This document shows, one piece after another, positions 9,987 to 35,998 of a DNA stretch of 40,474 nucleotides; within the stretch, counting starts at the first letter, position 1; each line of letters starts with the position of its first letter. The notes under the pieces were generated by a model. The model had not been told where the DNA came from, did no database searches, and saw nothing but the letters and a program-made list of their open reading frames with translations. Source of the DNA: a virus; IMG/VR virus record IMGVR_UViG_3300013767_000073, positions 1 to 40,474 of that record; one strand, given 5' to 3'. Both the position numbers and the translations under genes were made by a program.

Positions 9987-10423
9987 TGGCGAAACCGTTC
10001 GCCGTCGAGAACGGCGCGTCGCTCACGGCGGCGCTGAATGCGCTTGACGACATCAGCAGCGAGTCGGTGCTGCGCCAGGCTGCGGTCGCTGGGGCGCGCG
10101 TGGTGCACGCAGAGGCAAGGCTGCGTGCACCCGTCGACCTGGGGATCTATGAGGGCAAGCAGGGGAAGCATCCCCCTGGCTTCCTCCGCGACCACCTCAT
10201 CATCGCCTACGACGATGAGGTGTCGGTACCGGGCCGCATCGCCTCGTACATCGTCACCTGGTCGAGGGAGGCCTTCTATGGGCGCTTCTGGGAATTCGGC
10301 ACATCGAAGATGGCAGCGCAGCCGTTCCTGCGCCCCGCATTCGACGCGCGGAAGACCAACGCGGCGGCAGCAGTCGACGAGGTGATCCAGGTCAAAGTGA
10401 GAGAGCTGAATAGTGGCAAATGA
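9986..10423 (+). CDS. HK97 gp10-family protein
   Basis: LRAPVDLG ... FYGRFWEFGTSKMAAQPFLRPAF matches the gp10-family signature. ATG at 9986 follows gaggaggg. Confidence 0.65.
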   Translation: MAKPFAVENGASLTAALNALDDISSESVLRQAAVAGARVVHAEARLRAPVDLGIYEGKQGKHPPGFLRDHLIIAYDDEVSVPGRIASYIVTWSREAFYGRFWEFGTSKMAAQPFLRPAFDARKTNAAAAVDEVIQVKVRELNSGK

Positions 10424-13301
10424 GACGGTAGTACGGGTCACGGCCGACGCCTCCGGCTATTCCGCCGAGCTGGAAAAGGCGAAACGCAGCGCGGCTGCCT
10501 TCATAGAGGCGCAAGAGGCGGCGGCGCGCCGCACGCAAGCCGCCCAGGCAGCCATTACTGAGGCCGCCAAGAATGGCGCCGACGCGAGCGCGCGGCAAAT
10601 CAATGCCTTCGTCACCCAGGCCTCGCGCATGGCGGAGACGGCTGGCAAGACGCGCTCGCAGCTGCTCGAGCATAAGGCGGCCCAGCTCGGCGTCACCGAC
10701 GCGGTCTCCGGCTTTATCGACAAGCTGCGCGCCGCCGAGGTGGAGTCCGGCAAGCTGAAAAAGGTCGGTGATGCCCTGGATGCCACGGGTATCTCGGCCA
10801 AGCAGACAGCCGCCGCCATGCGCATGGTGCCGGCGCAGATGACCGACATCGTCACGCAGCTGCAGGGCGGCGCGAATCCGATGACGGTCCTGATCCAGCA
10901 GGGCGGTCAGTTGAAGGATATGTTCGGTGGAATCGGCCCGGCTGCGCGGGCGATGGGCACCTACCTGGCGTCGCTGGTCAATCCGCTGAGCGTGGCGGCC
11001 GCAGCTGCCGCTGTCCTGGGCTACGCCATGAGCAAGGGCGCCGGCGAGTCGCGCGCCTACAGCGAGGCCCTGGTCATGACGGGCGGCCATGCCGGCAAGA
11101 CGGCGGACCAGCTGGCAGTCATGGCTGAGAATATCAGCCGCTCGATCGGCACCCAAGGCCAGGCGGCCGAGACGCTGATCAAGCTCGCGGGTACCGGCAA
11201 GGTGGCCGGTGACCAGATGCAGGGCATCGCGGTCGCGGCCGAGTCGATGCACAAGGCCACCGGCGCCGCGGTCGACGACACGATCGCCAAGTTTGTGGAG
11301 TTGGCCGATGAGCCGGTCAAGGCGTCGGTCAAGCTCAACGAGCAGTACCACTACCTGACACATGCGATCTACGAGCAGATCGCCGCCCTCGAGGAGGAGG
11401 GCAAGAAGGAGGAGGCCGCCGCGCTGGCTCAGAAGGCGCTGGCCGACAAGATGAAGGAGCGGGCCGACAAGGTCATTGCGAACCTCGGCTACATGGAGCG
11501 CGCCTGGAACGCGATCAAGGGTGCGGCCAGCTCGGCCTGGGATGCCATGCTCGGCCTCGGTCGCGCGGCGACGCTCGACGAGATCCGCGGCAAGATCAGC
11601 GCAACGCAGAAGCAGCTGGCCAGCCTCGAGAGCGGCGAAGGCTTCGGCAATAACGGCAACGGCGCCGCCTTCGGCGCCGGCGCGCGCGGCCGCGCTGCCC
11701 AGATGGCCAGGCTGCGCGACGAGCTACAGCAGTTGCAGGCGCAGGCCAAGCCGCTGGAGGATGCCGACCGGCAGCAGCAGGTCCAGGCGGAGAACCAGAA
11801 GAAGCAGGACACCATGGTCGCGGCGCAGTCGCGCCTGGATGCGCAGAAGCAGGCCACGCGCAGCCGCGCCGAGCAGCGCAAGGACGAGATCGACCAGCTC
11901 AAGCGGGATGCCGAAACCGTCGGCATGGCCGCCGACGAATATGCGCGCCGCGCCGCAGCTATCAACGAGAAGTACAAGGACCAGAAGGGTCCGAAGGCGA
12001 AGGCCTACCAGGATGACGCGGCGACGCGCTTTCTGCAGCAGCTGCGCGAGCAGGAGGCTGCCGACCGCGCTGCCCTCGATTCCAATACCAAGCTGACGCA
12101 GGCGCAGCGCCAGCAGGCCGAGTTCCTGCAGAAGATCTCGGACCTCAAGGGCAAGTCGATCCTGACGGCCGACCAGAAGAGCCTGCTGGCCAACCAGGAC
12201 GCGATCAAGACGCAGCTCCAGCAGAACGTCGAGACCGAGCGGGCGCTGAAGCTGAAGGAGGAGATCGCCAAGGTCGAGGAAAGGTCGCGCCAGATCAACG
12301 ATCACATGGCCGACATCCAGGCTAACCACCGCGAGAACTACGCACGGGAGCTGGATGCCTATGGCCGCGGTGCTGACGCGCAGAAGCAGGCCGAGGCCGT
12401 CAAGGCGCTCACGAAGGAATACGAGCGCATGCAGTGGCAGCTGGAGAAGGCCACCAAGCCGGAGGCGCGCGGATCGGATGAGTACCTGCAGGCCCAGCAG
12501 CGCATTCGCGATGGCCTGCAGCAGTCGCTGAAGGACTACAGCGACTACTACGCCGAGCTCAAGGCGAAGCAGACCGAGTGGACCAACGGCGCCACCGCTT
12601 CCATCGCCAACTATGTCGACGCTGCGCGCAACATGGCGGCGCAGACCGCCAATGCCGTAACCAGCATGGCGCAGGGCATGGAGAACGCGCTGACCAACTT
12701 CGTGACCAAGGGCAAGCTGGACTTCAAGTCGCTGGCCGACAGCATCATCGCCGAGATCGTGCGGATTCAAGCGCGGCAGGCCGTCGCAGGCCTGGTCGGC
12801 ATGCTCGGCAACATGTTCGGGGCCGGCCTATCCGGGGCGGGCGCCTTCGATGGTGCCAGCTCGGCCCTGGCTGGCTCGCAGACCGCTGCGGCGACGCCGC
12901 TGGCGGGTGACTACTTTGGCACTGCTGGATCGGTGTCCGGTGGCTATGCCAGCGGTCTGTTCGGCGTGGCCGGTGCGCGTGCGTCTGGCGGCCCAGTGGA
13001 CGGCGGCCAGACCTACCTGGTCGGCGAGCGAGGGCCAGAGTTGTTCGTACCCAATTCTTCGGGGGGAATCGTTCCAAATCATGCACTTGGCGGTAGCGAG
13101 ATCAACGTGAGCGTGTCGGTGGTCGAAGACTCGTCGAAGGCTGGCCAGGTCGACCAGCAGCGCAACGGACGCGGCCTAGACCTGACCGTTTTCGTCGAAA
13201 AGGTCAAGGCGGCGGTCGCTGCAGACATCACGGCCGGAGGCACCTCGATCGCGCAAGCGATGGAGCGTGGCTACGGCCTGAATCGAGTAGGGAGGCGGTA
13301 A
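10413..13301 (+). CDS. Tail tape measure protein
   Basis: 962 aa, highly alpha-helical and Ala/Gln/Glu-rich. Lies downstream of the G/GT chaperones. GTG start. Confidence 0.9.
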   Translation: MANETVVRVTADASGYSAELEKAKRSAAAFIEAQEAAARRTQAAQAAITEAAKNGADASARQINAFVTQASRMAETAGKTRSQLLEHKAAQLGVTDAVSGFIDKLRAAEVESGKLKKVGDALDATGISAKQTAAAMRMVPAQMTDIVTQLQGGANPMTVLIQQGGQLKDMFGGIGPAARAMGTYLASLVNPLSVAAAAAAVLGYAMSKGAGESRAYSEALVMTGGHAGKTADQLAVMAENISRSIGTQGQAAETLIKLAGTGKVAGDQMQGIAVAAESMHKATGAAVDDTIAKFVELADEPVKASVKLNEQYHYLTHAIYEQIAALEEEGKKEEAAALAQKALADKMKERADKVIANLGYMERAWNAIKGAASSAWDAMLGLGRAATLDEIRGKISATQKQLASLESGEGFGNNGNGAAFGAGARGRAAQMARLRDELQQLQAQAKPLEDADRQQQVQAENQKKQDTMVAAQSRLDAQKQATRSRAEQRKDEIDQLKRDAETVGMAADEYARRAAAINEKYKDQKGPKAKAYQDDAATRFLQQLREQEAADRAALDSNTKLTQAQRQQAEFLQKISDLKGKSILTADQKSLLANQDAIKTQLQQNVETERALKLKEEIAKVEERSRQINDHMADIQANHRENYARELDAYGRGADAQKQAEAVKALTKEYERMQWQLEKATKPEARGSDEYLQAQQRIRDGLQQSLKDYSDYYAELKAKQTEWTNGATASIANYVDAARNMAAQTANAVTSMAQGMENALTNFVTKGKLDFKSLADSIIAEIVRIQARQAVAGLVGMLGNMFGAGLSGAGAFDGASSALAGSQTAAATPLAGDYFGTAGSVSGGYASGLFGVAGARASGGPVDGGQTYLVGERGPELFVPNSSGGIVPNHALGGSEINVSVSVVEDSSKAGQVDQQRNGRGLDLTVFVEKVKAAVAADITAGGTSIAQAMERGYGLNRVGRR

Positions 13302-14328: not shown

Positions 14329-14741
14329 ACGCCGCCGAGATCAACTGCTATGTCGGGTTGCCCTATCTGGCTGGTGGGCGCGGGCCAGAGGCCTTCGACT
14401 GTTGGGGGCTGTTGGTCCACCTGCAGCGGGAACACTTCGGGCGGGAATTTCCAGACCTGCAGATGGGCGATGCGGCGGCATCGTTCGCCGCCTACGAACG
14501 CCGGCGAGCCTCCGGCGAGTGGGTAGTCATCCCGCGGCCGGCGCACGGCGCGCCGGCGCTCATGCGGGCCGGCATGCACCCGCACGTCGGCACCTGGTTG
14601 GCGGTCGACGGTGGCGGCGTGCTGCATGCCCAGGAGGGTGCTGGCGTCGTCTGGACGCCGGGAAGTCGTCTCAACCTAGCTGGCTATGGCCGCATCCACT
14701 ACTACGAGATCCATGCAGGCAACGCTGATTCAGATCACTGA
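14325..14741 (+). CDS. Tail-associated NlpC/P60-type peptidase (lambda gpK-like)
   Basis: FDCWGLLVHLQREHFG carries the catalytic Cys context, with a downstream His (HPHVGTW). Position fits. Confidence 0.65.
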   Translation: MNAAEINCYVGLPYLAGGRGPEAFDCWGLLVHLQREHFGREFPDLQMGDAAASFAAYERRRASGEWVVIPRPAHGAPALMRAGMHPHVGTWLAVDGGGVLHAQEGAGVVWTPGSRLNLAGYGRIHYYEIHAGNADSDH

Positions 14742-17700
14742 CCCCTTCCGTCCGCAGCTCGGGCGCCAGGTGACCGCGCTGCGCCGGCGCAACCGCATTA
14801 CCACGCTATTGCGCCGGCGCGGCCTGGCCACGGTGTCAGCGGCGGGTCGGATCCGGCTGTCGGCGCCGTTCTTCGTGCTGCTCAACGGCCAGCCGCTCCT
14901 GCAGCGGGAGTGGCGGCGCTGCATCGAGGATGGTGACACGCTGGCGATTGTGGCTGTGCCCAAGGGTGGCGGTGGCTCGAACCCCTTGCAGATCATCGCT
15001 ATGATCGCCGTGGTGGTGATCTCGATCTATGCGCCTTATATGGCGCCGGCAGCATGGGGGGCTGTCGGCGCCACTGGCGGCCTGACTGCTACCGGCGCAC
15101 TGATCTCGGCTGGCGTGATGATGGCTGGCAGCCTGTTGGTCAACGCCATCCTGCCGCCACCCAAGCCGAACCTTGGGCTTGGCCAGCAGGGATCGCAGGC
15201 CAGCCCGACCTATGGCATCAACGCGCAGGGCAACTCGGCGCGGCTGCTCGGCGCCATCCCGGTCCTGTATGGCCGGCACCGGGTCACGCCGGACTTCGCC
15301 TCGCAGCCGTACACCGAGTACATCGGCAACGAGCAGTATCTGTACCAGCTGTTCGTGGTGACGCAGGGGCAGGCTCAGATCGAGCAGGTGCTGATCGGCG
15401 AGTCGGACATCAGTGTCTACTCGGAGGTCCAGTACGAGATCATCCCACCCGGCGGCGCCGTGACGCTCTTCCCGGACAACGTCGAAACTAGCACCGCGGT
15501 GACTGGCCTCGAGCTCAAGGGGCCGAACGAGGGCGGTGACTATGTGGGGCCATTCATCGTCAACTCGGCGGGGTCGCAGGCCTCCTACATCGGGATCGAC
15601 ATCTCGCTGCCCAACGGTCTGTTCTACGCCAACAACAGTGGCGGCATGGACGGGCGAACGGTCAGCTTTGTCGCGGAAGCCCAGTGGATCCACGACGATG
15701 GCTCCCCCATCGGCAACTGGTGGGAGCTTGGGCGCGACACCATCACCATGGCCACGACGACGCCCCAGATGCGCTCCTATCGTTGGGCGACTGGCTTGGG
15801 GCGCGCGCAGGTGCGGTTGCGCCGCCTGAACGACAAGGATCTGGATTCGCGCGCCGGCAACACGCTGGTGTGGTCTGGTCTGCGCGGCTACTTGACGAGC
15901 AAGCGCGTCTACGGCGACGTGACCATGATCGCGACCCGGATCCGGGCCACGAACAACCTGAACAGCCAGACGGCGCGCCAGCTTGGCGTGATTGCAACGC
16001 GCAAGCTGCCGGTGTGGAACGGCTCGGCGTGGAGCGACCCGCAGCCGACACGCAATCCGGCCTGGGCCTTCGCGGACATCTTCCGCAACGCAGGCTACGG
16101 CCGAGGGCTGCCGGACTCCCGGCTCAATCTCGCGCACTTGCTCGAGCTCGCGGCGACGTGGAATGCGCGCGGCGATCGCTTCGACGGCATCTTCGACACG
16201 TCGGTGACGGTCTGGGACGCGGCCACCAGCGTGGCGCGGGTGGGGCGAGCGCTGCCGATGTACTACGCTGGCGTCATCGACATGATCCGTGACGCGCCGC
16301 AGTCGGTGCGCAAGGCGATGTTCACGCCGCAGAACATGGTCAAGGGCAGTTGGAGCGCGGACTATGTGCTGCACGACTACGACACGCCGGACTACGTGAT
16401 CATCGAGTATGTCGACGAGGCGACCTGGCAGGCGATGGAGGTGGAGTGTGCGCTCCATGGCAGCGCCAAGCTGAAGCCGGAGCGCGTGAAGCTGTTCGGA
16501 TGCGCAAATCGGGCGCAGGCCTGGCGGGAGGGCATGTACATGGCGGCAAGCCATCGCGATCGCCGCCGGTTCATTAGCTTCACGACCGAGTTGGACGGTC
16601 ATATCCCACAGTATGGCGACCTGGTCGCGGTCAGCCATGATGTGCCGGCCTGGGGCCGCTCGGGGGTGGTCATGGGGTATGACCCTGGCGCCGGCGTGCT
16701 GAGCCTGTCCGAGCCCATGGTCTTTGAGGTGGGGGCAAGCTACCAGATCGCGCTGCGCCGGCGCGATGGCAGCATGGATGGTCCCTATGCCGTCGCCTCC
16801 GGTGCCGTGGACACCGATGTGGTCCTGGTGGGGCTGACGGCGGCACAGCGCAGCGCGATCTACGTGTCCGATGGCGCCAGCGAGGAGCCGACGATCGTCG
16901 CCTTCGGGCAGGTGGATCGTGTGTCGCTGGATTGCCTGGTGGTGTCAGTCTCGCCAAAGAACGACCTGGAGGTGGAGGTCACGGTCGTCAATGCGGCGGA
17001 CAGCGTGCACAAGGCGGAGAATGACGGGTCTGTGCCGCCGCCGCCACGCCCCTCTGAGCTGCCCGGCAATAGCGAGGCGCCGGTGATCAGCTCGGTGAGT
17101 GTGCTGCCATCTTGGGGTGGGTGGGTATCCATCACGGCGACGGCGGCGCGCAATGCGCAGCGCTATGAGTTCCAGGTCAGTCGGGATGCCGGGGCGTCCT
17201 GGGTGTACCTGGGCGACTCGGCGACCCCGCAACTGGGGGCGCAGATTGCGCCAGGGGCGGTGCAGGTCCGGGTGCGGGCGATCGGGGCGGCGGCACCTGG
17301 GCCGTGGACCGTGTGGACGGGGACCATCACCGAGACTGCATATGTTCCCGGCCCTCCAACATTGGTGCTGCGCGCGCCGTTCGTCGGTAGGGTGGTGCAG
17401 ATCGATATCGCGGCGCAATCCTATGTGTCGTATTACGAGGTCGAGGTCTGGACGGGCGGTGTCAAGCGGCGCCAGTTCGCGATCCCTGGCTCCAGCTTCG
17501 AGTGGAGCTATGACGATGCAGTCAACTGGGGGGCGGTCTCGCCGTCGATCACCTTCATCGTGCGAGCAGTGAATAGCGCCAACCAGGCCTCCACTGACAC
17601 CTCGATCACCGTCAGCAATCCCCCTCCGCCGGCGGTGGATCACACCTATACGGAGTCGGACGATGGCTTCCACCTCACACCTAGGATCACGATTCGGCCT

Positions 17701-17898
17701 GGGCCGGACACGGACCTGGAGCGGTGCGACCTGCGCCTCGGGTCGACCTCTGGGCCGGTGATCTACAGCGGTATTGCACCGGTCGAGCTGGAGCTCATGG
17801 AGGCCAGTACGTATGTGCTGTTCCAGCGAGACGTGTGGGGCAGCCAGGGTCCCATCACGACGATCAACACGCCGTCGCCACCGAATCCAGGTAGTTGA
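14713..17898 (+). CDS. Host-specificity / central tail fibre protein (gpJ-like) with an N-terminal gpI-like segment
   Basis: About 1061 aa. The N-terminus has a LLNGQPL...DGDTLAIVAVPKGGGGSNP motif plus a hydrophobic Gly-rich stretch (gpI-like). This is followed by a gpJ-like body and FN3-like repeats near the C-terminus. Confidence 0.8.
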   Translation: MQATLIQITDPFRPQLGRQVTALRRRNRITTLLRRRGLATVSAAGRIRLSAPFFVLLNGQPLLQREWRRCIEDGDTLAIVAVPKGGGGSNPLQIIAMIAVVVISIYAPYMAPAAWGAVGATGGLTATGALISAGVMMAGSLLVNAILPPPKPNLGLGQQGSQASPTYGINAQGNSARLLGAIPVLYGRHRVTPDFASQPYTEYIGNEQYLYQLFVVTQGQAQIEQVLIGESDISVYSEVQYEIIPPGGAVTLFPDNVETSTAVTGLELKGPNEGGDYVGPFIVNSAGSQASYIGIDISLPNGLFYANNSGGMDGRTVSFVAEAQWIHDDGSPIGNWWELGRDTITMATTTPQMRSYRWATGLGRAQVRLRRLNDKDLDSRAGNTLVWSGLRGYLTSKRVYGDVTMIATRIRATNNLNSQTARQLGVIATRKLPVWNGSAWSDPQPTRNPAWAFADIFRNAGYGRGLPDSRLNLAHLLELAATWNARGDRFDGIFDTSVTVWDAATSVARVGRALPMYYAGVIDMIRDAPQSVRKAMFTPQNMVKGSWSADYVLHDYDTPDYVIIEYVDEATWQAMEVECALHGSAKLKPERVKLFGCANRAQAWREGMYMAASHRDRRRFISFTTELDGHIPQYGDLVAVSHDVPAWGRSGVVMGYDPGAGVLSLSEPMVFEVGASYQIALRRRDGSMDGPYAVASGAVDTDVVLVGLTAAQRSAIYVSDGASEEPTIVAFGQVDRVSLDCLVVSVSPKNDLEVEVTVVNAADSVHKAENDGSVPPPPRPSELPGNSEAPVISSVSVLPSWGGWVSITATAARNAQRYEFQVSRDAGASWVYLGDSATPQLGAQIAPGAVQVRVRAIGAAAPGPWTVWTGTITETAYVPGPPTLVLRAPFVGRVVQIDIAAQSYVSYYEVEVWTGGVKRRQFAIPGSSFEWSYDDAVNWGAVSPSITFIVRAVNSANQASTDTSITVSNPPPPAVDHTYTESDDGFHLTPRITIRPGPDTDLERCDLRLGSTSGPVIYSGIAPVELELMEASTYVLFQRDVWGSQGPITTINTPSPPNPGS

Positions 17899-24872: not shown

Positions 24873-24889
24873 GCTGGGAGGACGGCCCC

Positions 24890-28180: not shown

Positions 28181-28204
28181 GTTGTTGATGCTCCCGTTGG
28201 CCGA

Positions 28205-28222
28205 GGTTTCTACGTAGAAACC
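28205..28222. promoter_or_regulatory. parS-like / operator palindrome in the parA leader
   Basis: ggtttctacgtagaaacc, a perfect 18-bp palindrome 25 nt upstream of the parA ATG. Confidence 0.6.
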
Positions 28223-28265
28223 TACGCGGCATGCGGCGAATGATATAGAGGAAAAATAAAAATAA

Positions 28266-28293
28266 GAAGAAATAAAAACGGGCCGAAGCCCGT
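28266..28293 (-). terminator. Rho-independent terminator ending the DGR transcription unit
   Basis: Minus strand: acgggc-ttcg-gcccgt followed by tttttatttcttc. Confidence 0.7.
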
Positions 28294-28299
28294 CCTGTT

Positions 28300-28315
28300 G
28301 TTTCTACGTAGAAAC
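28300..28315. promoter_or_regulatory. Third copy of the parS-like palindrome
   Basis: gtttctacgtagaaac at 28300-15. Confidence 0.55.
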
Positions 28316-28321
28316 TTCGCG

Positions 28322-28585
28322 TCAGCCAGACGCCAGCCTAGTGCGCCAGCTGCTGTATGGGAGGCCGATGGCGATGTGATAGCGGTGGCGCGCTTCGGCA
28401 CTGCTATCCAGTTCGCTGCGGGATTTGATCTTGCAGGCGGAGCGGAGCACGGAAGCGGCACGCTCCGCATCCTCTAGATCGGAAAAGTCCTTCCAATCGA
28501 TGGGGAAGCGCTCGGCGAGGAAGTGGCGAAAGTCGGCGTTGCTGCAAAGGATTCCGGCGGTGCGGGCGAGGGCGTGGCTGCTCAT
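28322..28585 (-). CDS. Hypothetical 87-aa protein co-transcribed downstream of the RT
   Basis: Starts 12 nt after the RT stop and ends just before the terminator. No recognised family. Confidence 0.6.
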   Translation of the reverse strand: MSSHALARTAGILCSNADFRHFLAERFPIDWKDFSDLEDAERAASVLRSACKIKSRSELDSSAEARHRYHIAIGLPYSSWRTRLASG

Positions 28586-28596
28586 GGCTATATGTC

Positions 28597-29841
28597 CTAG
28601 AAGAGCACCATCTGGCGCGGGGTGATGGCAGGAGCGGGCTCGGTATTGGCGGCTTTGGGTATAGGCTCGGTGGCCAGTCGCCGGTATATCTTGGTGAGGC
28701 TCGAGTCCACGGTGTGGCCGCGGCGGCGAGCAATGTTGGCGAGCTGCGCCTGGTCATGGTGGCTTCCTGTGGCTTGGCGCAGTAGCCCGAGGTAGCTGTT
28801 GGCGCTGGTGAAGACCTCGGCAGCCGGCATTCGCTCGAGGCGGTGTGCTGCCGCCTGGACTGTTCGCCGGCGCGTGGTGCGCACCCATGGTCTGATTACT
28901 TGGCCAACGAAGTCGACGCCGCGCGCAACCGGCTGCAGGATGGTCTTGGCCGGATTCAACTGTGCACCGAGCCGTCGTGGTAGGAATGCCGTGATGTCTT
29001 TCAGTGCGGCGTTCAACCACTGGGGCGATTCATGTAGCAGCACGAAATCGTCGACGTAGCGGATGTAGTGCCGGCACCTGATTTTGTGCTTCACGTGCTG
29101 ATCCAGCGTGTCCAGGTGGACATTGGCAAAGAACTGGCTGCTCAGATTCCCGATCGGTAGGCCTCGATGAGCCGGCTGATTCAGAAGGCTCTTGTGCGCG
29201 GGCACACGCGCCATCAGCTCGCGTGGGCTGTGGAACTGGGCGCCGGGGCGAGGGTCGTGCATTAGCACTACGTCGACCAGCCACATCCACCAGGGCTCCG
29301 TCACGCGCGCGGCCAGCTGCTCGCGTAGGACGTTCTTGTCGATGCTGACGAAGAAGTTCGCCAGATCGCATTTCAGGTAGAAGGCTGGCCTTGCCCAATT
29401 CTGGGTGATGCTGCGGATCTTTGCCTCGAGGCGCTGGGCTGCGTACAGCGTGCCGCGGCCTGGGATGCATGCGCAGCTGTCGGCGACGAATGCAGCGTGG
29501 AAGCGTGACGCGATGCGGTTGTACAGCAGGTGATGGACCACCCGATCGCGGAAGTCGGCTGCCCAGACCTCGCGCACCTTAGGCCGGGTGACGACGAAGC
29601 AGATTGAGCGGCCCGGCCGATAGCAGCCGTCGACCAGATCACGGTGCAGCTGTGTCAGGTTGCGCTCGAGCCGCTGCTCGAAGCGAAGGGCGCTGTGTGT
29701 GCCGCGTTTGTGTCGACGGCAGTCGAAGTAAGCCGCGACGAGTTCCTCGAAAGAAAAGTCAGCATGGGCCGGTACGGCTTGATCTGCGGACGGCGCGCGC
29801 GCGGTACTCGTTACCCTTGTGGTTGTAGTTCTGATTGCCAT
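28597..29841 (-). CDS. DGR reverse transcriptase
   Basis: LPIGNLSSQFFANVHL (the DGR-specific [ILV]GxxxSQ motif) and RYVDDFVLL (YxDD). The only in-frame canonical start near the conserved N-terminus is the ATG at 29841, inside the TR. Confidence 0.9.
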   Translation of the reverse strand: MAIRTTTTRVTSTARAPSADQAVPAHADFSFEELVAAYFDCRRHKRGTHSALRFEQRLERNLTQLHRDLVDGCYRPGRSICFVVTRPKVREVWAADFRDRVVHHLLYNRIASRFHAAFVADSCACIPGRGTLYAAQRLEAKIRSITQNWARPAFYLKCDLANFFVSIDKNVLREQLAARVTEPWWMWLVDVVLMHDPRPGAQFHSPRELMARVPAHKSLLNQPAHRGLPIGNLSSQFFANVHLDTLDQHVKHKIRCRHYIRYVDDFVLLHESPQWLNAALKDITAFLPRRLGAQLNPAKTILQPVARGVDFVGQVIRPWVRTTRRRTVQAAAHRLERMPAAEVFTSANSYLGLLRQATGSHHDQAQLANIARRRGHTVDSSLTKIYRRLATEPIPKAANTEPAPAITPRQMVLF

Positions 29842-29890
29842 TGCCGAAGTTCTGGATCCAGGCGTTGTTGGAGTTCTCCGCGTGCTGCGT
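29781..29890 (-). repeat. DGR template repeat (TR)
   Basis: Aligns to both VRs. On the coding strand it reads ...AEN SNN AWI QNF GNG NQN YNH KGN EYR ARA VRR, with 9 Asn codons (7 AAC, 2 AAT). GC-only stretch at the 3' end. Confidence 0.9.
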
Positions 29891-30061
29891 CGAGTCGTGC
29901 TATCCACGTCGCCTCGCCGAAGGCTTGCGCCGATCGGCGGGGAAACTGCGCTGGACCAGACCCGGGCGAACCCGGCGGTATCCTCATTGCGCCTGTCGGT
30001 GGCCACGCATGGCCAGCGGCACGACCAGATAAAGATCGCACGGGCCTGATCGCCTTGACGA

Positions 30062-30418
30062 TCAGGCAGCAGGCGACGATGCGGAGTGCTTGCGCCAACC
30101 ATGGCCTTGTTTGCTTACGCTGCTGGTGAGTTGGATTGCCTGGGCGTACTGCTTAGTCGAAATGAACTGCATATCGCGCGAGAGGCGGAGCAGCAGTTCG
30201 ACCACTTGCACGCGCTCGAGCAAATCGCTGATGTGCGGCACCTTGTCCCGCGCCACGTTGGCCCGGAAGATCAGCACGACGATGGCCAGGGCCTCGTCGC
30301 GGATCCGGCCGCCGAGCGATAGCTTGAAATCGCGCGGCATGTTGCGGGTCAGGGCCGTCACGTCACGAAACAGGTCGTACGCGACTTTGTAGATGGCCAG
30401 GTCAGTATGAAGCGCCAT
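30062..30418 (-). CDS. avd: Accessory variability determinant (Avd, four-helix-bundle protein)
   Basis: 118 aa. LAIYKVAYDLFRDVTALTRNMPRDFKLSLGGRIRDEAL is typical of the Avd / 23S-IVS four-helix-bundle family. Lies between the target gene and TR. Confidence 0.85.
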   Translation of the reverse strand: MALHTDLAIYKVAYDLFRDVTALTRNMPRDFKLSLGGRIRDEALAIVVLIFRANVARDKVPHISDLLERVQVVELLLRLSRDMQFISTKQYAQAIQLTSSVSKQGHGWRKHSASSPAA

Positions 30419-30434
30419 GCTGAAAAAAATCGTG

Positions 30435-30450
30435 GGCCGCTTACGCGGCC
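30435..30450 (-). promoter_or_regulatory. GC hairpin downstream of VR1 (DGR target-recognition hairpin / terminator)
   Basis: ggccgc-ttac-gcggcc. On the minus strand it is followed by cacgattttttt. Confidence 0.6.
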
Positions 30451-30471
30451 GAATTGAGAAGGACTAAATGA

Positions 30472-30963
30472 CTAAATGGGAGATCTGCGGACGGCGCGCG
30501 CGCGGGACTCGTGACCCTTGTGGCTGCAGACCTGAATGCCATTGCCGAAGTCCTGGACCCAGGCGCTGAGGGAGTACTCCGCGCGCTGCTCGTTGGACCA
30601 ATACCAGGTGCGCTCGAATTCTTCGGGAAGATTGGCGTAGAGCAGCGCCTGCTCTCGCCGAGTTGGCAGCTCGCCGCCGATCGATGCGGCCCAGTCCTTA
30701 GCTGCACTCCATTCCATCTTGCCGGGGTCGGCTGGAAGCAGGACCAGGTGGCAGTCAGGGGCGCCGTCCTTGCTCAGTAGGATGCCGGCATAGCGCTCAC
30801 CTTCGGCGAGGATAGGGCGAATCCCCTGGGCGATGTGGTTTTTGATCACGACGGGATGCTTTTCGATCAGGCTGGCCAGCCAGGCCTTCATGACCGATTG
30901 CGCGGGAATGGTGACCTTGGCCTCTCCGACTTGGAAGGTCACGTTCTCAGCAACTTGCGACAT
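30472..30963 (-). CDS. DGR target protein 1 (DUF1566 / C-type-lectin-fold-like)
   Basis: 163 aa. MEWSAAKDWAASIGGELPTRREQALLY ... YWSNEQRAEYSLSAWVQDFGNGIQVCSHKGHESRARAVRR. VR at the 3' end. Confidence 0.85.
   Translation of the reverse strand: MSQVAENVTFQVGEAKVTIPAQSVMKAWLASLIEKHPVVIKNHIAQGIRPILAEGERYAGILLSKDGAPDCHLVLLPADPGKMEWSAAKDWAASIGGELPTRREQALLYANLPEEFERTWYWSNEQRAEYSLSAWVQDFGNGIQVCSHKGHESRARAVRRSPI
30482..30589 (-). repeat. Variable repeat 1 (VR1)
   Basis: 108-bp alignment to TR 29781-29888 with 14 mismatches. Every mismatch is at a TR plus-strand T (an A on the coding strand). Confidence 0.9.
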
Positions 30964-30998
30964 AGGGTGTGCTCCTGAAATGGTGAAAAATCGCGCGG

Positions 30999-31016
30999 GG
31001 GCCGCTGACGCGGCCC
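30999..31016 (-). promoter_or_regulatory. GC hairpin downstream of VR2
   Basis: gggccgc-tgac-gcggccc. Same core as the VR1 hairpin. Confidence 0.6.
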
Positions 31017-31035
31017 TAATAGATAAAGGGGTGAA

Positions 31036-31692
31036 TTACTGAATCACCAGCATGCTGCGGACGGCGCGCGCGCGGTACTCGAGACCCTTGTGGTAGTAGT
31101 CCTGATCGCCACCGCCGAAGTCCTGGACCCAGGCGTCGTGGGAGTACTCCGCGTGCCGCGTGGAAGTCCAGTAGTAGCCCTCCGCGAAGGCCTCCGCGGC
31201 ACCGGTCTGGAAGATCTCGGCAGCCGTCTGGGCGGGGAAGTCCTCGGTGTATGGGTATCCGACCGGCACGCTGCTGGGGTTATCACCGTCGCGATAGCTT
31301 GCGTAGTTCCCCTCGGTGGGCTTCAGGTTGCGATAGACGAGCTCCTGCTCGTCGCGGGCCGGCAGGTACCAGTCGTGGAAGCCGTTAAGCTGCAGGCCGA
31401 GTGCCCACATGGCGATGTCGCTGCCTGCGCCGGCCATGGCCTTGGTGTTGGCGCGGCCGTCGAAATAGCTCATCGCACCGTCTACGCTTAGCATCGACGA
31501 GTTCCAGATTGTGGGCTCGTGCTCGCCACCGTCTTTCGGTGCGACGACCAGCACGTGGATGCCATCGTCCTTGCGGACCTGGCCGGCGTAGAAGCCGCCG
31601 CCGAGCGGCTGGCCGATCTGCAGCGCAGCGGCTGCGGCCTGGGTGATAGCGCTATGGATGACTTGCATTTCGACTGCGGTGATGGCGGTCAT
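31036..31692 (-). CDS. DGR target protein 2 (DUF1566 / C-type-lectin-fold-like)
   Basis: 218 aa. GGGFYAGQV...HVLVVAPKD ... DWYLPARDEQELVY ... YYWTSTRHAEYSHDAWVQDFGGGDQDYYHKGLEYRARAVR. VR at the 3' end. Confidence 0.85.
   Translation of the reverse strand: MTAITAVEMQVIHSAITQAAAAALQIGQPLGGGFYAGQVRKDDGIHVLVVAPKDGGEHEPTIWNSSMLSVDGAMSYFDGRANTKAMAGAGSDIAMWALGLQLNGFHDWYLPARDEQELVYRNLKPTEGNYASYRDGDNPSSVPVGYPYTEDFPAQTAAEIFQTGAAEAFAEGYYWTSTRHAEYSHDAWVQDFGGGDQDYYHKGLEYRARAVRSMLVIQ
31055..31161 (-). repeat. Variable repeat 2 (VR2)
   Basis: 107-bp alignment to TR 29784-29890 with 13 mismatches, all at TR plus-strand T. Confidence 0.9.
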
Positions 31693-32069
31693 AGTTGCTC
31701 CTGGGTGGGGATGGCCGCAAAGAAGGCGGCGGGCGCTGCGGTGGGAAGCTGGTGCGCGAGATTGCGCTCCAGCTGACGGCGGAAGGCGATGGCCTTCTTC
31801 AGGCCAGCGTCGCGCTTCACGGGGTCGACACTAGCCGCGCGTTCGCGGGCCAGACGAATGGCGAAATCGATGCTGTCGCCGGCGGCGACGCGCTGGCCGC
31901 TCTCGATATGCGATACGGCATACAGAGGGCTGTACGGGCCGGTATTGACCATGGCATGGACCGCGCAGGAATCCACGGGCATCCCGGGGATGTCGATGAT
32001 GTCGCCGATCACCTCTTCCAGCCAGGCTGTGCCGCCGGCGCGGTCGCCGCATGTGATATGGAACCTCAT
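31689..32069 (-). CDS. Hypothetical protein, translationally coupled to DGR target 2
   Basis: In-frame ATG at 32069 (MRFHITCGD...). ATGA overlaps at both ends. Confidence 0.6.
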   Translation of the reverse strand: MRFHITCGDRAGGTAWLEEVIGDIIDIPGMPVDSCAVHAMVNTGPYSPLYAVSHIESGQRVAAGDSIDFAIRLARERAASVDPVKRDAGLKKAIAFRRQLERNLAHQLPTAAPAAFFAAIPTQEQL

Positions 32070-32539
32070 GACTGCCCCTCGCTGAGGGCACGCAGCGACG
32101 CATTCTCTTGCTCGAGTTGTCCGATTCGCTGCGACTGGTCCTCGCGGCTGCCGCGTAGCAGTGCACGCATGGCCTGCTCGGCGATGAGTTGGTGAGGGGC
32201 CTGGCGGGCGTGAAGCATGGCCGCGTAATTGGCGATGTCCGCTGGATCGCCCTTGGTGACGGCATGCCCGAGTAGCATGGCCAGTCGCTCCAGAGAGCAC
32301 TCGAGCGGATTGTCCCAGCCGCTGCGGCCGCGGGCTCGGCATTCCCGTAGCTTCGCCTTCATCGCTTCGGCTAACTGGTCGACGGCGAGATTATCGATAT
32401 GCGGGGCTGGCGGAGGCGTGACCTTCTTGCGCGAGGTCGCGGCGAGCCGCTGGGCGCCTTCTTCGCCGATGCGGGTGCCGATCGTGCCGAGAATAGGCGC
32501 GATCGGACTGTGGTGGGTGTGCTTGCGGTGGTAGCTCAT
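32066..32539 (-). CDS. Hypothetical protein (shares a motif with the upstream gene)
   Basis: ATG at 32539 (MSYHRKH...). ATGA overlaps. Motif DPADIANYAAMLHAR. Confidence 0.6.
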   Translation of the reverse strand: MSYHRKHTHHSPIAPILGTIGTRIGEEGAQRLAATSRKKVTPPPAPHIDNLAVDQLAEAMKAKLRECRARGRSGWDNPLECSLERLAMLLGHAVTKGDPADIANYAAMLHARQAPHQLIAEQAMRALLRGSREDQSQRIGQLEQENASLRALSEGQS

Positions 32540-33060
32540 GCGCGAGCCTCGCATTCGCCGAAGCGGCGCAGGAGGGCGGCATCTTCTTCGCTGGCCGGTT
32601 GAGCCTCCACATCGTCAGAGCCGGGCACGGCGACGCCGACAAACGTCACCTGTTCACCGTGGGTCCAGACGGGCGTCAGCGTAATGGTCTCGCCGACGTG
32701 CAGCGTGTGCTCTTCGGGTGTGTATCCATACCATTCGCCGTCCTGCCAGTAGCCGTAGGGTTCGGATGGAGTGGGGGAGGCCGCCGAGGCCTCCAGCTGG
32801 GCTGTCTCCATCCTGATGCGGTCGAGCAGGGGGCGAAGCGCGAGGCGGGCGAGGCTGTCGTCATCGATGCCGCGCTCATGCAGTAGCATGGCGTACACAC
32901 CGACATCAATCGGGCTGCGGCGACCGAGGCTGTCGACCAGGGCGAGCGCAAGGTCATTGTTCGAGAGCGTGGTCGGGTCTGGTGTCATCACGTGAAGGCG
33001 GGCGGCAACGGCCAGGGAGAACTGGTGCGTCTTGCCGGGTGAGCGAATGGTCTGCGTCAT
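32536..33060 (-). CDS. Hypothetical protein
   Basis: 174 aa. ATGA overlaps. Motif SPIDVGVYAMLLHER. Confidence 0.6.
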   Translation of the reverse strand: MTQTIRSPGKTHQFSLAVAARLHVMTPDPTTLSNNDLALALVDSLGRRSPIDVGVYAMLLHERGIDDDSLARLALRPLLDRIRMETAQLEASAASPTPSEPYGYWQDGEWYGYTPEEHTLHVGETITLTPVWTHGEQVTFVGVAVPGSDDVEAQPASEEDAALLRRFGECEARA

Positions 33061-33497
33061 GCTCGTTTCTCCAACGGGTGGGGCGCCGGCTTTGCGCCGT
33101 GTGCGGTCATGGCTGCAACGGCGATGTCGCGCGCGGCGGCGAGGGAGCGGACCGAGGCGGTATTGATCGCCTCGTGGATCTGCACGGAGACCGCGCGAAG
33201 CGATAGCTTCTCGAACTGATAGGCGACGACCTGGCCGCTTTGCTGCCAGCGCTCATAGATCGTGTCGAGCGTGCGCTGCGCTGATTGGAACTGCCGGTCG
33301 AAGTCGCTCACGCGCTGGAGAGCCATGGCCTGGCGGGCGATGGTGAGCATGCGGGCGACCCGGTTGAAGGACTTGGGTGAGGGGTCAAGAAACAGGTCGG
33401 CCAGGCTGTCGTAGAGCTCAAGCTGTAGGCTGGCTTTGTCCTGTGCGATGGTCGGGGTCGCGCCGCGGCGGATTTGGTGAAAGTGCCGTGTGCTCAT
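33057..33497 (-). CDS. Hypothetical protein
   Basis: 146 aa. 4-nt overlaps on both sides. Confidence 0.6.
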   Translation of the reverse strand: MSTRHFHQIRRGATPTIAQDKASLQLELYDSLADLFLDPSPKSFNRVARMLTIARQAMALQRVSDFDRQFQSAQRTLDTIYERWQQSGQVVAYQFEKLSLRAVSVQIHEAINTASVRSLAAARDIAVAAMTAHGAKPAPHPLEKRA

Positions 33498-34036
33498 GCC
33501 AGGGCCTCGCAGAATTCCTCCTCGCCCACGATGGCGTCGACCTCGTCGAACGCGTGGAACAGGTGCGCCGTGACGTGCAGCTCGCGGTCGAACTCTTGCA
33601 GCTTGATGCCTGGGTCCGGGCCAAAGTTAGGGGTGGCTGCATTGACCAGGTGGAGCAGGCGGCCGCCATGCTCGCGTACCAGAGTGGCCTCGGCCTCTGT
33701 GCACACATCGGGAATGATGACTGGGACGCATTGCGCAGCGGCTTCGCGCAGGGCGTCACGCGTCGGGTCTATCAGGGTGTCGGCGCCGACGGCAGCGCGG
33801 ATCCATGTCCAGCGCAGGGAATGCAGCAGCTGCGCTGGCGATTTCTTGAGCTGGGGGACCGGCGTGTGGAAAAGGTCTGTGCGGAAATGATCATCGGCGA
33901 GATGAAAGCCGGCCTGCAGCATGCGGCGCAGGGGCCTATCGAAGCTGACGATCGTGAAGCGGTGATCGCTGGAGGCGAGATAGTCGGCGATGGCGTCCTG
34001 CCCGGCGCCCGGGCGGCCGGTGATTCCGATCAACAT
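33494..34036 (-). CDS. dNMP-kinase-like protein with degenerate P-loop
   Basis: MLIGITGRPGAGQDAIADYL resembles phage deoxynucleotide monophosphate kinases (..GLTGR.GSGKDT..), but has Q and A in place of the Walker-A K and T. Confidence 0.5.
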   Translation of the reverse strand: MLIGITGRPGAGQDAIADYLASSDHRFTIVSFDRPLRRMLQAGFHLADDHFRTDLFHTPVPQLKKSPAQLLHSLRWTWIRAAVGADTLIDPTRDALREAAAQCVPVIIPDVCTEAEATLVREHGGRLLHLVNAATPNFGPDPGIKLQEFDRELHVTAHLFHAFDEVDAIVGEEEFCEALA

Positions 34037-34048
34037 GGTGAATCTCCT

Positions 34049-34234
34049 TCAGTCGAGGTCGTTGGCCTGCCGGCGCTTGTGGTCGATCACGCTGGGATCG
34101 TGTGGGCGCGGGGAAGCCTTGCGGGCCGTCTGCAGCCGTGCCTTGATCGAGGCGATCAGCTCCAGGCGGGTCTTCTTGTGGCGGATCGCCTCCTCTGGGC
34201 GGCCGCTGCCCTTGATGCGGACGAACTCCGCCAT
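34049..34234 (-). CDS. Hypothetical small basic protein
   Basis: In-frame ATG at 34234 (MAEFVRIKGSGRPEE...). The upstream part of ORF 34049..34459 looks non-coding. Confidence 0.4.
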   Translation of the reverse strand: MAEFVRIKGSGRPEEAIRHKKTRLELIASIKARLQTARKASPRPHDPSVIDHKRRQANDLD

Positions 34235-34272
34235 CAGGGCAGCGTTAGAGAAGGGGCGCGCCGCCACGGTAG

Positions 34273-34401
34273 TTAGGTCCGGCGGGCGATGGAGCTGGCA
34301 GCGGCCTCGTCCAGATCGCTTTCCACCGCGAGGGTGTGGGCGAGGCCGATGATCATCAGGGCGGTGAGATAGGCGAGGGCGCCTCGGTATTTCTTCGGCA
34401 T
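34273..34401 (-). CDS. Possible 42-aa membrane peptide, first gene of the leftward operon
   Basis: Hand-translated: MPKKYRGALAYLTALMIIGLAHTLAVESDLDEAAASSIARRT. GGAG lies 7 nt upstream. Below the ORF-track size cut-off. Confidence 0.3.
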   Translation of the reverse strand: MPKKYRGALAYLTALMIIGLAHTLAVESDLDEAAASSIARRT

Positions 34402-34439
34402 TGCGCGTCTCCATGCTGGGTAACACGCGCATGTTAGAA

Positions 34440-34473
34440 GTGATTCTAATAAACGTCAAAGGGTGATTCTAAT
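34440..34473. promoter_or_regulatory. Direct repeats in the divergent regulatory region
   Basis: gtgattctaat at 34440-50 and 34463-73, in an AT-rich 285-bp intergenic region. Confidence 0.4.
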
Positions 34474-34686
34474 GGTGCGGGCCGGGTCACCCCACTAGAG
34501 TGGTGTAAAAGTATCTAACGAGGCATATCTGTGAGCCTCACTTTGTCGTGAAAGTGAGACGTTCTGCTAAGTGGGAATTCTGCTTAGGTCACAAATACCA
34601 TGAGCCCATGTCTACACATTTTGTGTTGTATGTAAGTAACGAAATGTGATGCGCGCGATACCTGTTTCTCGTTACCGTCGCGCCCT

Positions 34687-35058
34687 ATGGACGACAACAA
34701 GACAATTCCCTGGGGCCGGATTGCGACGCATCTGCAGCGGGCTGGTCATACGCAGATGTGGCTGGCCGGCCAGCTAAATGTCGCGTCCAACGTGGTGACG
34801 AACTGGAAGCGACGGGGCGGCGCGCCGATGGGGCGGGCCCGCGAGTTGGCGGACGCCTTCGGTATCTCGGTAGGGCAGCTGCTCGAGCATCAAGAGGTGC
34901 GTGAGCGCATGAGTAAGGCTGGCCTGCGCCTGGTCGACCGGATCAGGGAGATGGATCAGCGCGGCCTGCTGACGAAGCAGGCCGAGGCAGCCGCGATGGC
35001 CTTTCTGGATCTCGTGGAGAGTGCCGGAGCTGTCGCGGCAGGAAGAGGGCGGAAATAG
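34687..35058 (+). CDS. XRE-family HTH transcriptional regulator
   Basis: TQMWLAGQLNVASNVVTNWKRRGGAPMGRARELADAFGISVGQLL is a Cro/CI-type HTH. Divergent from the leftward operon. Confidence 0.7.
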   Translation: MDDNKTIPWGRIATHLQRAGHTQMWLAGQLNVASNVVTNWKRRGGAPMGRARELADAFGISVGQLLEHQEVRERMSKAGLRLVDRIREMDQRGLLTKQAEAAAMAFLDLVESAGAVAAGRGRK

Positions 35059-35079
35059 CCTCCGTATGGGGCTATTTCC
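35051..35079. terminator. 10-bp-stem hairpin between the convergent regulator and cI genes
   Basis: ggaaatagcc (35051-60) pairs with ggctatttcc (35070-79). No strong T-run on either side. Confidence 0.4.
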
Positions 35080-35082
35080 GCT

Positions 35083-35892
35083 TTACAGCGGGCGGCCTGA
35101 GAATACGACGATGCCGCAGAAGTGGTGGTCTGGCTCGACTTGTGTGAATCGGTATGGCCAGGCCGGGTTGATTGCCTCAAGGAACAGCTGGTCCTCGATC
35201 TTGGTGAGCCTCTTGAAGGTCGCCTCATTGCCGTTGCGGGCCACGATGACGAACTTGCCCGGTACTGCCTCAAGGTCCGGATTGACGAATAGCAAGGTGT
35301 CCTCGGGGAAGGAGTAGCGCGATTCTGGCGTGCCGGTCATCGACATCCCCTTTACCCGCAATACGTACCCTCGAGGGCCCAGGTCATAGGGGCAGTAATG
35401 CCGATTGACCCCTTCTTCCGACACGAAATTGTCACTGATTGTTGTCCACATCCCCGCTTGCACCCATGAAATCTCGGGGTATTGGCGTGCCCTTATGTCT
35501 GGCCCTGCCTCGAAGTTGTCCCCCGCTGAAGGCTGATTGTAAGCCGACGCTACAGAAGCGTTTCTCCCCTCCAGCGGAGGGGAAGTGTCATCGACGGGGG
35601 TGTTTGCTACTGAGAGTAGGCTGCCGGCCAGCCGCGGGCTGATCTCAGATGGGCGGGCGCCTATCGCCGCACAGATCGCCACCAGCGCTTTGAGATTCAA
35701 GGGGATGATGCCGCGTAGGTATTGCCCTACGGCACTTTGCTTTCCTAGCTTTGACACGGATCCCAGCCATTCCTGGGTAGGTCGCTCCCCTTTCTCTGCG
35801 CATCGATCCTGGTATGCCTTCCATGCAGTGGTGAGCCGGGCTGCATCGGCTTGTTCCTCAGCGCTCAGGGCGCGTTTGCGTACGGTTGCCAT
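35083..35892 (-). CDS. cI: CI-like repressor (HTH + S24 LexA-type autopeptidase)
   Basis: N-terminal HTH (QSAVGQYLRGIIPLN). C-terminal VKGMSMTGT (Ser) and EATFKRL (Lys). Ala-Gly in the linker. Confidence 0.85.
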   Translation of the reverse strand: MATVRKRALSAEEQADAARLTTAWKAYQDRCAEKGERPTQEWLGSVSKLGKQSAVGQYLRGIIPLNLKALVAICAAIGARPSEISPRLAGSLLSVANTPVDDTSPPLEGRNASVASAYNQPSAGDNFEAGPDIRARQYPEISWVQAGMWTTISDNFVSEEGVNRHYCPYDLGPRGYVLRVKGMSMTGTPESRYSFPEDTLLFVNPDLEAVPGKFVIVARNGNEATFKRLTKIEDQLFLEAINPAWPYRFTQVEPDHHFCGIVVFSGRPL

Positions 35893-35960
35893 ACGGGAAT
35901 TTTAGTAGAGTTGCTACTGATTTAGGCTCCTTCAAAAGAAGAAGGGGTCTCATCCTTTTG

Positions 35961-35989
35961 TTGACCAAAAGAATTAGTGCTTCTAATAT
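35961..35989 (+). promoter_or_regulatory. Candidate rightward early promoter (PR-like)
   Basis: TTGACC (35961-66), 17-nt spacer, TAATAT (35984-89). A dyad cttttg-ttgac-caaaag overlaps the -35. Using it would leave a near-leaderless cro transcript. Confidence 0.45.
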
Positions 35990-35998
35990 TTGGGGCCT

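Follow-up and report, generated by a model that had tools for sequence, protein, structure and literature searches.

Diversity-generating retroelements (DGRs) of phages are taught and annotated as tropism switches, and to our knowledge no DGR belongs to the classical models of the lambdoid early-left (PL) operon. In phage BPP-1 the target gene mtd follows a tail-fiber gene in the late operon. Short DUF1566 targets have been covered in surveys, where non-structural viral targets receive only a passing mention (PMC5758913, PMC8144416), and about half of the category 'd' DUF1566 targets of Wu et al. (2018) are short, single-domain proteins (PMC5758913). The announcement of phage Magia notes a DGR and its 'relatively short' targets and leaves their position uncommented (PMC7883833). 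A literature search for DGRs in early operons, which extended to lambdoid phages, superinfection exclusion, anti-defense and phage-plasmids, found no paper on this placement, which is weak evidence given its incomplete coverage. Here we analyzed the DGR on a viral stretch of 40,474 nucleotides, IMG/VR record IMGVR_UViG_3300013767_000073 (the window), which by its ends and gene content is recognized here as a complete circular phage-plasmid. Unlike the BPP-1 cassette, this one lies within an early operon. The best explanation, with a probability of about 0.6, is that this early-operon DGR diversifies two small intracellular binders, the targets T1 and T2, which are not parts of the tail.

A preliminary description of this DNA had placed the DGR outside the tail module, and this was confirmed. 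The tail genes end at 21359 on the plus strand and the DGR lies on the minus strand. Since no third variable repeat (VR) turned up when the entire window was searched at low stringency with the template repeat (TR), the tail genes are not DGR targets. Beyond the tail genes follow a GH19 endolysin, a holin and a spanin-like gene, and then KfrA, a Rep3-type RepA, ParB and ParA, as expected from the lysis, kfrA, repA and parAB modules that had been described in between. The six-gene chain ending in T2 (Table 1) was found with all five of its ATGA overlaps (33494-97, 33057-60, 32536-39, 32066-69 and 31689-92), which leave no room for internal promoters. The proposed start of the chain at a control region shared with a regulator held in part. 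The control region, from which the operon must be transcribed, does adjoin a helix-turn-helix (HTH) gene, but two small open reading frames (ORFs) of 42 and 61 aa precede the chain. A terminator-like hairpin ends the unit before parA, in agreement with the earlier description.

The operon had been called one of unknown function, and this could be replaced by an identification through a relative that lacks the DGR. The nearest sequenced replicon is the circular Cupriavidus oxalaticus plasmid NZ_CP038638 (L001; 37,950 bp), itself a phage-plasmid. It has the same backbone, with an S24 CI, Cro-like and CII genes, a divergent 123-aa HTH gene and a leftward string of small genes ending at parA. Genes A and D, the 61-aa gene and the 87-aa ORF all have homologues in this string. 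In the window, the S24 CI, Cro-like and CII genes occupy 35083-36975, and the leftward operon runs to parA. Because this backbone is common to the DGR-less plasmid, the DGR cassette is placed inside a conserved early-left operon, and by position and synteny the leftward operon is a lambdoid early-left operon with the cassette lying within it. The 87-aa ORF is the last gene of the ancestral operon, since its homologue sits last before parA in L001. A role of this ORF as a DGR accessory gene was rejected, as it is present in the DGR-less plasmid.

The closest relative (L003, with a reverse transcriptase [RT] 81% identical) is an integrative prophage in which the 61-aa gene is followed by A, B, further genes, E, T2, T1, avd, RT and integrase. 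Judged by this order, parAB occupies the position of the integrase in the present element. Gene E was conserved in L003 only (61%), there too directly upstream of the T2 homologue. Gene A has homologues in seven loci (L001, L003 and five others), sometimes downstream of the RT, and the gene D domain occurs in five (L001, L003 and three others), on either side of the RT. It had been suggested to check whether the coupled genes travel with DGRs. This comparison was run, and genes A to E do not co-occur with the DGR; a DGR-linked module was rejected on this ground. By their distribution these genes form a mosaic cargo of the early operon. No informative match for genes B to E or the 87-aa ORF came from Pfam, NCBIfam or PADLOC, and PHROGs returned unknown-function families only.

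The control region of the operon was then compared with that of the rightward genes. The PL-like site is the only sigma-70-like promoter on the minus strand within 28000-36500. An 11-mer, GTGATTCTAAT, occurs in three copies in the window when one mismatch is allowed (0.11 expected), two of them on the leftward and one on the rightward promoter, and one copy forms the palindrome TTAGAAGTGATTCTAA. Plasmid L001 likewise carries palindromes (ATTAGAA..TTCTAAT) in both its control regions. The leftward operon thus probably carries repressor operators, and the arrangement, which resembles OL and OR of lambdoid phages, would make it a repressed early operon. The N-terminus of the divergent 123-aa regulator is similar to the HTH portion of CI proteins encoded by related loci, and the protein is 58% identical to its L001 homologue. 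Taken together, these predictions make early, repressor-controlled expression of the cassette likely.

The preliminary description had proposed expression with early or with maintenance genes. The early part is in line with the operon type and the operator-like motifs, and the maintenance part was not upheld. Two perfect copies of the palindrome GTTTCTACGTAGAAAC flank the terminator upstream of parA, and a third lies inside parB; these are probably centromere or operator sites of the par system. Since the terminator and the three GTTTCTACGTAGAAAC copies separate the operon from parAB, the operon is not a maintenance unit, and co-transcription with parAB was ruled out for the same reason.

We next describe how the cassette is placed across its lineage. 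With the RT as query, at least 374 relatives were obtained from viral contigs and at least 206 from species-representative genomes, with hosts mostly among the Burkholderiales, the Rhodocyclales/Nitrosomonadales and Pseudomonas. A scan of the viral contigs based on T2 gave no matches, its single-protein patterns being too specific, and the RT served as query instead. By these searches, the relatives make up a large DGR lineage of their own, carried by temperate phages of Beta- and Gammaproteobacteria. For 160 loci (the best 80 of the viral set and the best 80 of the genome set), ORFs were called and clustered, and cluster representatives were annotated with PHROGs and Pfam. The recurrent order was CII and Cro on the opposite strand, CI, early genes, one to four small targets (mostly two to three per locus), avd and RT, followed downstream by methylase, HNH and unknown genes and then by excisionase and integrase. 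Among the early genes are RecE, exonuclease, ParB-like nuclease, DUF2303 and DNA polymerase, with a Mu-type transposase in one lineage. An integrase or recombinase was located downstream in 41/50 viral and 57/70 genome loci with a flank of at least 3 kb, starting in the genome loci at a median of 2.6 kb after the RT. CI, CII or Cro was found upstream in 30/56 viral and 41/67 genome loci. Between -6 and +3 kb, 782 ORFs were co-oriented with the RT and 127 were not (86%).

The big same-strand neighbors of the cassette are DNA-metabolism genes. J-like tail and tape-measure genes were observed only beyond the integrase, on the other strand and 7-9 kb away. A limited set of tail and head markers gave matches in just three of the 80 genome loci, the nearest at 8.9 kb and none adjoining the cassette. 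Homologous operons next to tail-fiber genes in relatives, which the preliminary description had named as a finding that would speak against it, were not found in the 160 loci. In Pseudomonas phage Haboob the cassette is flanked by the CI repressor on one side and by Bet, nuclease and methylase genes on the other, and in Burkholderia phage Magia it is found between a C2-like repressor and the integrase. As a control, BPP-1 showed mtd directly after the tail-fiber gene, and its cI-to-int operon was free of TR, avd and RT. Going by gene order, the cassette of the lineage has a fixed position between the immunity region and the integrase. The cassette architecture was constant over at least 206 species-level genomes.

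The targets themselves were analyzed by sequence, structure prediction and fold search. T2 belongs to the Lcl_C family, formerly DUF1566. Its AlphaFold2 model (predicted local distance difference test [pLDDT] score 89.8) forms one compact domain, with the first 11 residues below pLDDT 50. The best match to this fold in the PDB was the Legionella Lcl C-terminal domain (8q4e), followed by C-type lectins. A profile of T2 homologues gave a marginal Lcl-domain match only against PDB sequences; the fold search was clearer. Over 36 homologues the mean identity was 58%, with many invariant scaffold residues and the variation concentrated in the VR. That the targets lack a signal peptide was borne out by a crude hydrophobicity and lipobox screen, which gave no signal-like N-terminus for T1 or T2; T2 has no cysteine. 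The crude screen was extended to 164 targets of the lineage. No lipobox was found among them, two had a marginally hydrophobic N-terminal stretch and one had a transmembrane-like internal segment. These targets are poor in cysteine, and half have none outside the VR. By this screen essentially none of the lineage targets looks exported.

Related targets occur in phages with unrelated tails, which are of sipho type here and of myo type in Magia, with a Mu-like element in L070 as a further case. The myophage Magia (PMC7883833) encodes three small proteins that are 45-49% identical to T1. The Pseudomonas phages Medea1 (L085, 6244-7552) and Aurca01 (L167, 4992-6300) have kept a small DUF1566 pair with VR-like 3' ends. 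The pair stands at the equivalent early position, after ERF, exonuclease and single-stranded DNA-binding protein genes and before methylases, and neither avd nor RT is found there. The occurrence of T1-type proteins in a siphovirus-type and a myovirus-type phage, the lack of export signals and of conserved cysteines and the RT-less orphans lean away from a tail-tip role, and a non-virion role of the DUF1566 targets is favored on these comparisons.

Some observations on single relatives of the targets may be added. The best T1 homologue in Magia (L083) is gene 46 (7903-8367; 49% identical), which is annotated as hypothetical and is probably a third DGR target that was not flagged by the authors. 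Aurca01, which is RT-less, and the RT-bearing Cruim01 have a common host, and the two form a natural pair with and without the enzyme. The lambdoid Pseudomonas phage D3 encodes a stand-alone protein of 186 aa (Q9MBK5) with the T2 fold (E 1.3e-6 in BFVD).

Judged by its parts, the cassette is a canonical DGR, with an RT, a bAvd protein, an RT-15 RNA, a TR and two VRs each trailed by a hairpin. Over 110 nt, 15/19 mismatches between the TR and VR1 and 13/14 between the TR and VR2 fall at TR adenines, and the non-adenine mismatches are confined to the 5' edge. The TR and both VRs have a common 3' end, ...CGCGCGCGCGCCGTCCGCAG, beyond which they diverge; this end is GC-rich and resembles an initiation of mutagenic homing site. 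The hairpins after VR1 and VR2 are near-identical (GC stems of 6-7 bp, 4-nt loops). The hairpin after VR1 could be a cis element of the DGR, a partial terminator or both. The RT is 30% identical to Brt of BPP-1 (E 7e-39), and its motifs IGNLSSQFFAN and RYVDDF align with those of Brt (IGxxxSQ, YxDD). Between the TR and the conserved RT N-terminus (~29757) no start codon is present, and the nearest in-frame ATG, at 29841, lies inside the TR. We infer that the RT starts at this ATG and that the TR overlaps its reading frame.

Both VRs retain open reading frames and their variation is restricted to adenines; the DGR of this element is probably active. For the lineage, activity was assessed with two viral contigs (L009 and L010) that are near-identical apart from the VR. 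Comparison of L009 9207-9313 with L010 366-472 revealed an identical TR, in which 35/107 bases are A, and 14 differences in one VR. Because all of these (14/14) fall at TR adenines, the mutagenesis of the lineage is, by this comparison, active in nature.

An RNA element was identified next to the TR. RT-15 (Rfam RF03018) was matched at full length in the interval from the avd stop to the TR, whose 5' end it abuts. By cmscan it was detected in 8/8 relatives (L002, L003, L009, L012, L060, L070, L083 and L084), and by nhmmer in 158/160 loci, constantly about 120 nt before the conserved RT N-terminus. The order in the lineage is avd, RT-15, TR and RT, with no separate spacer RNA 3' of the TR. The Phage_DGR RNA (RF03022) gave no match in the window, while BPP-1 does give a match. 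Weinberg et al. described RT-1 to RT-19 as orphan motifs near RT genes, with RT-10 alone tied to the BPP-1 DGR (PMC5737381). The orphan motif RT-15 can thereby be tied to a concrete role in genomes, that of the RNA element in the present DGR lineage.

On the reading that we prefer, infection or induction would cause the repressor to leave the operators common to the leftward and rightward promoters. A single transcript would start at ~34430 and run through the two small ORFs, genes A to E, T2, T1, avd, the RT-15/TR RNA, the RT and the 87-aa gene to the terminator at ~28270. Copying of the TR by the RT and Avd would be error-prone at adenines and would rewrite the final ~110 nt of both targets, so that each genome would enter the next cell with its own binder variant. 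T1 and T2 would be soluble, single-domain lectin-fold binders made early in the cell and not tail parts. Their variable face would recognize something that differs between hosts or competitors, with host defense proteins (counter-defense) or proteins of rival phages (exclusion) as obvious candidates.

Several points weigh against this explanation. Promoters and operators were called from consensus and motif matches alone, and signal peptides were screened by a crude hydrophobicity and lipobox rule and not by a trained predictor. The T-run hairpins after the targets could end transcription, so that transcripts from the PL-like promoter need not reach avd and RT, and Magia has an annotated terminator upstream of its proximal target. 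Pfam, NCBIfam and PADLOC gave no ligand, partner or defense-related homology for T1, T2 or genes B to E. The same fold forms the C-terminus of long tail-fiber proteins in other phages, and encoding in an early operon is compatible with later assembly onto virions. A wider claim goes beyond the preferred explanation and is held tentatively, as a possible but doubtful extension. It states that this is a separate DGR lineage (with RT-15 5' of the TR and the TR overlapping the RT frame) that diversifies early intracellular proteins into an antibody-like repertoire of cytoplasmic binders against host defense or rival phages, maybe with a priming of cDNA that differs from BPP-1.

The targets might instead be small detachable receptor-binding adaptors on the tail tip or fibers (for example on the 860-aa or 273-aa protein), and the DGR would then switch tropism as in BPP-1. 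Mtd of BPP-1 is, by annotation, likewise a separate protein attached to fibers, and Lcl_C/DUF1566-like domains end long tail-fiber, collagen-repeat and S74-chaperone proteins in other phages. Moreover, a host-range role was assumed by the Magia authors (PMC7883833), and the circular map puts the cassette only ~7-10 kb from the tail-fiber end, here and in relatives. Even so, the cassette adjoins tail genes in none of the 160 loci, and the target genes lie on the other strand from the late operon, with translational coupling to early genes. T2 consists of nearly nothing but one lectin-fold domain, T1 and T2 have no significant similarity to Mtd, and the close relatives of the targets are spread over phages with unrelated tails (sipho type in this element, myo type in Magia, a Mu-like element in L070). 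We regard the adaptor role as unlikely.

A service to the lysogen was considered as well, with the targets made at a low level in the plasmid-prophage state as a hypervariable repertoire for defense or superinfection exclusion. The integrase-proximal prophage end, where the cassette lies, is in lambdoid phages the classical site of accessory and exclusion genes, and some phages that have no RT still carry orphan targets. That DGRs could serve prokaryotic immunity has been put forward as a general idea (PMC10053308). However, T2 has no promoter of its own owing to the ATGA overlap, and the sole upstream promoter bears repressor-type operator motifs, which predicts silence in the prophage state. 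The PADLOC models matched the RT alone and generically, and a cytoplasmic binder by itself has no obvious effector. These points make the lysogen role quite improbable. The location could also reflect tolerance, with the DGR a selfish passenger in a dispensable, integrase-proximal early operon and its targets of no specific benefit. The mosaic neighbors, the failure of genes A to E to travel with the DGR, the close phage-plasmid relative that lives without one and the loss of the RT in some phages are all consistent with a passenger. Against it stand the strong conservation of the scaffold outside the VR (58% mean identity over the 36 homologues), the retention of targets by RT-less phages, VRs that keep their reading frames and adenine-restricted variation, and an architecture constant over the at least 206 genomes. 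We consider a mere passenger very improbable.

Table 1. Positions of the features described in the window (L001, plasmid NZ_CP038638; L003, closest relative)
Feature	Position	Strand	Evidence or remark
Tape measure	10413..13301	+	
J-like central fiber	14686..17898	+	
16-bp palindrome GTTTCTACGTAGAAAC, three perfect copies	28206-28221, 28300-28315, 27319-27334		0.02 expected
Intrinsic-terminator-like hairpin and T-run	28265..28296 (hairpin 28296..28275)	-	ends unit before parA
87-aa ORF	28322..28585	-	phrog_5358, phrog_19763; 58% identical to gene next to parA in L001
DGR reverse transcriptase	28597..29841	-	RVT_1; phrog_1423 1.6e-115
Template repeat (TR)	29784-29893	-	110 aligned bases with each VR
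RT-15 RNA (Rfam RF03018), multi-stem structured	29888..30078	-	full length, 179.6 bits (gathering score 82)
avd (bAvd four-helix-bundle accessory protein)	30062..30418	-	Pfam bAvd 43.5 bits (cut-off 40); phrog_3206 2.6e-31
GC hairpin GGCCGC-GTAA-GCGGCC and T-run	30435..30450	-	downstream of VR1
Target 1 (T1), 163 aa, small Lcl_C-like	30472..30963	-	Lcl_C match below Pfam cut-off
VR1	30485-30594	-	3' end of T1 ORF
GC hairpin GGGCCGC-GTCA-GCGGCCC	30999..31016	-	downstream of VR2; read from sequence
Target 2 (T2), 218 aa, single Lcl_C/DUF1566 C-type-lectin-like domain	31036..31692	-	Pfam Lcl_C 40.2 bits (cut-off 34.9)
VR2	31055-31164	-	3' end of T2 ORF
Gene E	31689..32069	-	phrog_33997; overlaps T2 start by ATGA
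Gene D	32066..32539	-	phrog_8298
Gene C	32536..33060	-	no family match; no homologue in the loci
Gene B	33057..33497	-	no match in Pfam; homologues upstream of targets in about 8 related loci
Gene A, deoxynucleoside monophosphate (dNMP)-kinase-like P-loop protein	33494..34036	-	phrog_139 2.2e-13; Walker A = GAGQD
61-aa basic protein, second gene of operon	34049..34234	-	homologues in L001 (59%) and L003 (53%)
42-aa hydrophobic ORF, first of operon	34273..34401	-	translation; 41-aa gene annotated at equivalent place in L001
PL-like sigma-70 promoter, TTGACG-17-TAACAT (predicted)	34431..34459	-	consensus match
Operator-like motifs over PL-like promoter	34434..34473		palindrome TTAGAAGTGATTCTAA 34434-34449; GTGATTCTAAT at 34440 and 34463
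123-aa HTH regulator, divergent from leftward operon	34687..35058	+	weak phrog_4, phrog_8 and NCBIfam RstR matches
CI-like repressor, S24 peptidase domain	35083..35892	-	Pfam Peptidase_S24 5.7e-17; 67% identical to L001 repressor
PR-like promoter, upstream of Cro-like gene (predicted)	35961..35989	+	contains third motif copy GTGCTTCTAAT at 35977-35987

Side observations were made on the operon's opening genes. The 61-aa protein holds the same position in L001 and L003. Where the window has the 42-aa peptide, L003 encodes a hydrophobic ORF of 45 aa, matched by position. The position of the 42-aa peptide would fit an N-like antiterminator, which could be relevant given the terminator-like hairpins after each target. 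In gene A, the motif GAGQD stands where the closest homologue (L003) has the usual GAGKD. Because the catalytic Walker A lysine is replaced, the gene A protein may be inactive or repurposed.

The element as a whole was also annotated. The ends of the window are identical over 127 nt (1-127 and 40348-40474), and it is therefore a closed circle of ~40.35 kb (about 40,347 bp). The plus strand encodes terminase, portal, capsid, connector, major tail protein, chaperone, tape measure and minor tail proteins, continued by a J-like central fiber and two large proteins (860 and 273 aa) up to 21359. No sheath gene was found among the tail genes, and the tail is of siphovirus type. With the structural and lysis genes, the window combines a Rep3 RepA, ParA, ParB and KfrA on a circle, and no integrase or recombinase homologue was found in it; these are the features of a phage-plasmid. 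Directly upstream of the Rep3-type repA, a 22-bp unit is repeated in 4.2 tandem copies (26134-26224), probably the iterons of the origin. The kfrA region (24001-25000) has a G+C content of 0.735, compared with about 0.64, and a strong AT skew. From the kinship with NZ_CP038638 and the T2 homologues carried by Cupriavidus and Ralstonia genomes (57-67% identity), the host is probably Cupriavidus. When the DGR region and the structural half were compared with the phage collection by megablast, only short matches were returned and no close sequenced phage.

A widespread lineage, with at least 374 viral contigs and at least 206 species-level genomes, appears to depart from the tropism-switch pattern, its cassette lying in the early operon with one to four small, signal-less lectin-fold targets. 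If the targets act inside the cell, targeted hypermutation would extend to counter-defense or to conflict between phages. Cultured members are available (Magia, Haboob, phPA-G and the pair Cruim01/Aurca01 with and without RT), so that the role is testable now.

Compared with known systems, the cassette resembles that of BPP-1 in its RT with the same motifs at 30% identity, its Avd and the adenine mutagenesis between TR and VR. In both, the VR lies at the 3' end of a lectin-fold target and its GC-rich end is followed by a hairpin. Unlike Mtd, however, T1 and T2 have no oligomerization or docking domains. The RNA of BPP-1 (RF03022) lies 3' of the TR, whereas RT-15 of this element lies 5' of the TR, which itself runs into the RT frame. 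The annotated 'VR2' of BPP-1 lies in bbp36. With the Legionella-type category 'd' DUF1566 targets, the element shares a VR placed in a DUF1566/Lcl_C lectin fold (PMC5758913). LdtA is a surface lipoprotein (PMC5758913), whereas the 164 targets of the present lineage have no lipobox and stand in the context of a phage early operon.

Magia, Haboob, phPA-G and Cruim01 belong to the same RT lineage, with RTs 62-66% identical, an Avd, an RT-15 RNA and two to three small lectin-fold targets. Their cassettes lie between the immunity repressor and the integrase and among recombination and methylase genes. In contrast to the element, with its parAB, Rep3 and KfrA, these phages integrate and have an integrase and an excisionase downstream. 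As in a lambdoid early-left operon, the leftward unit lies beside a CI-type repressor, is co-oriented and runs towards the integration module, here replaced by partition. It is likewise a mosaic of recombination, methylase and small unknown genes. The operator-like motifs predicted at its promoter recur at the rightward promoter.

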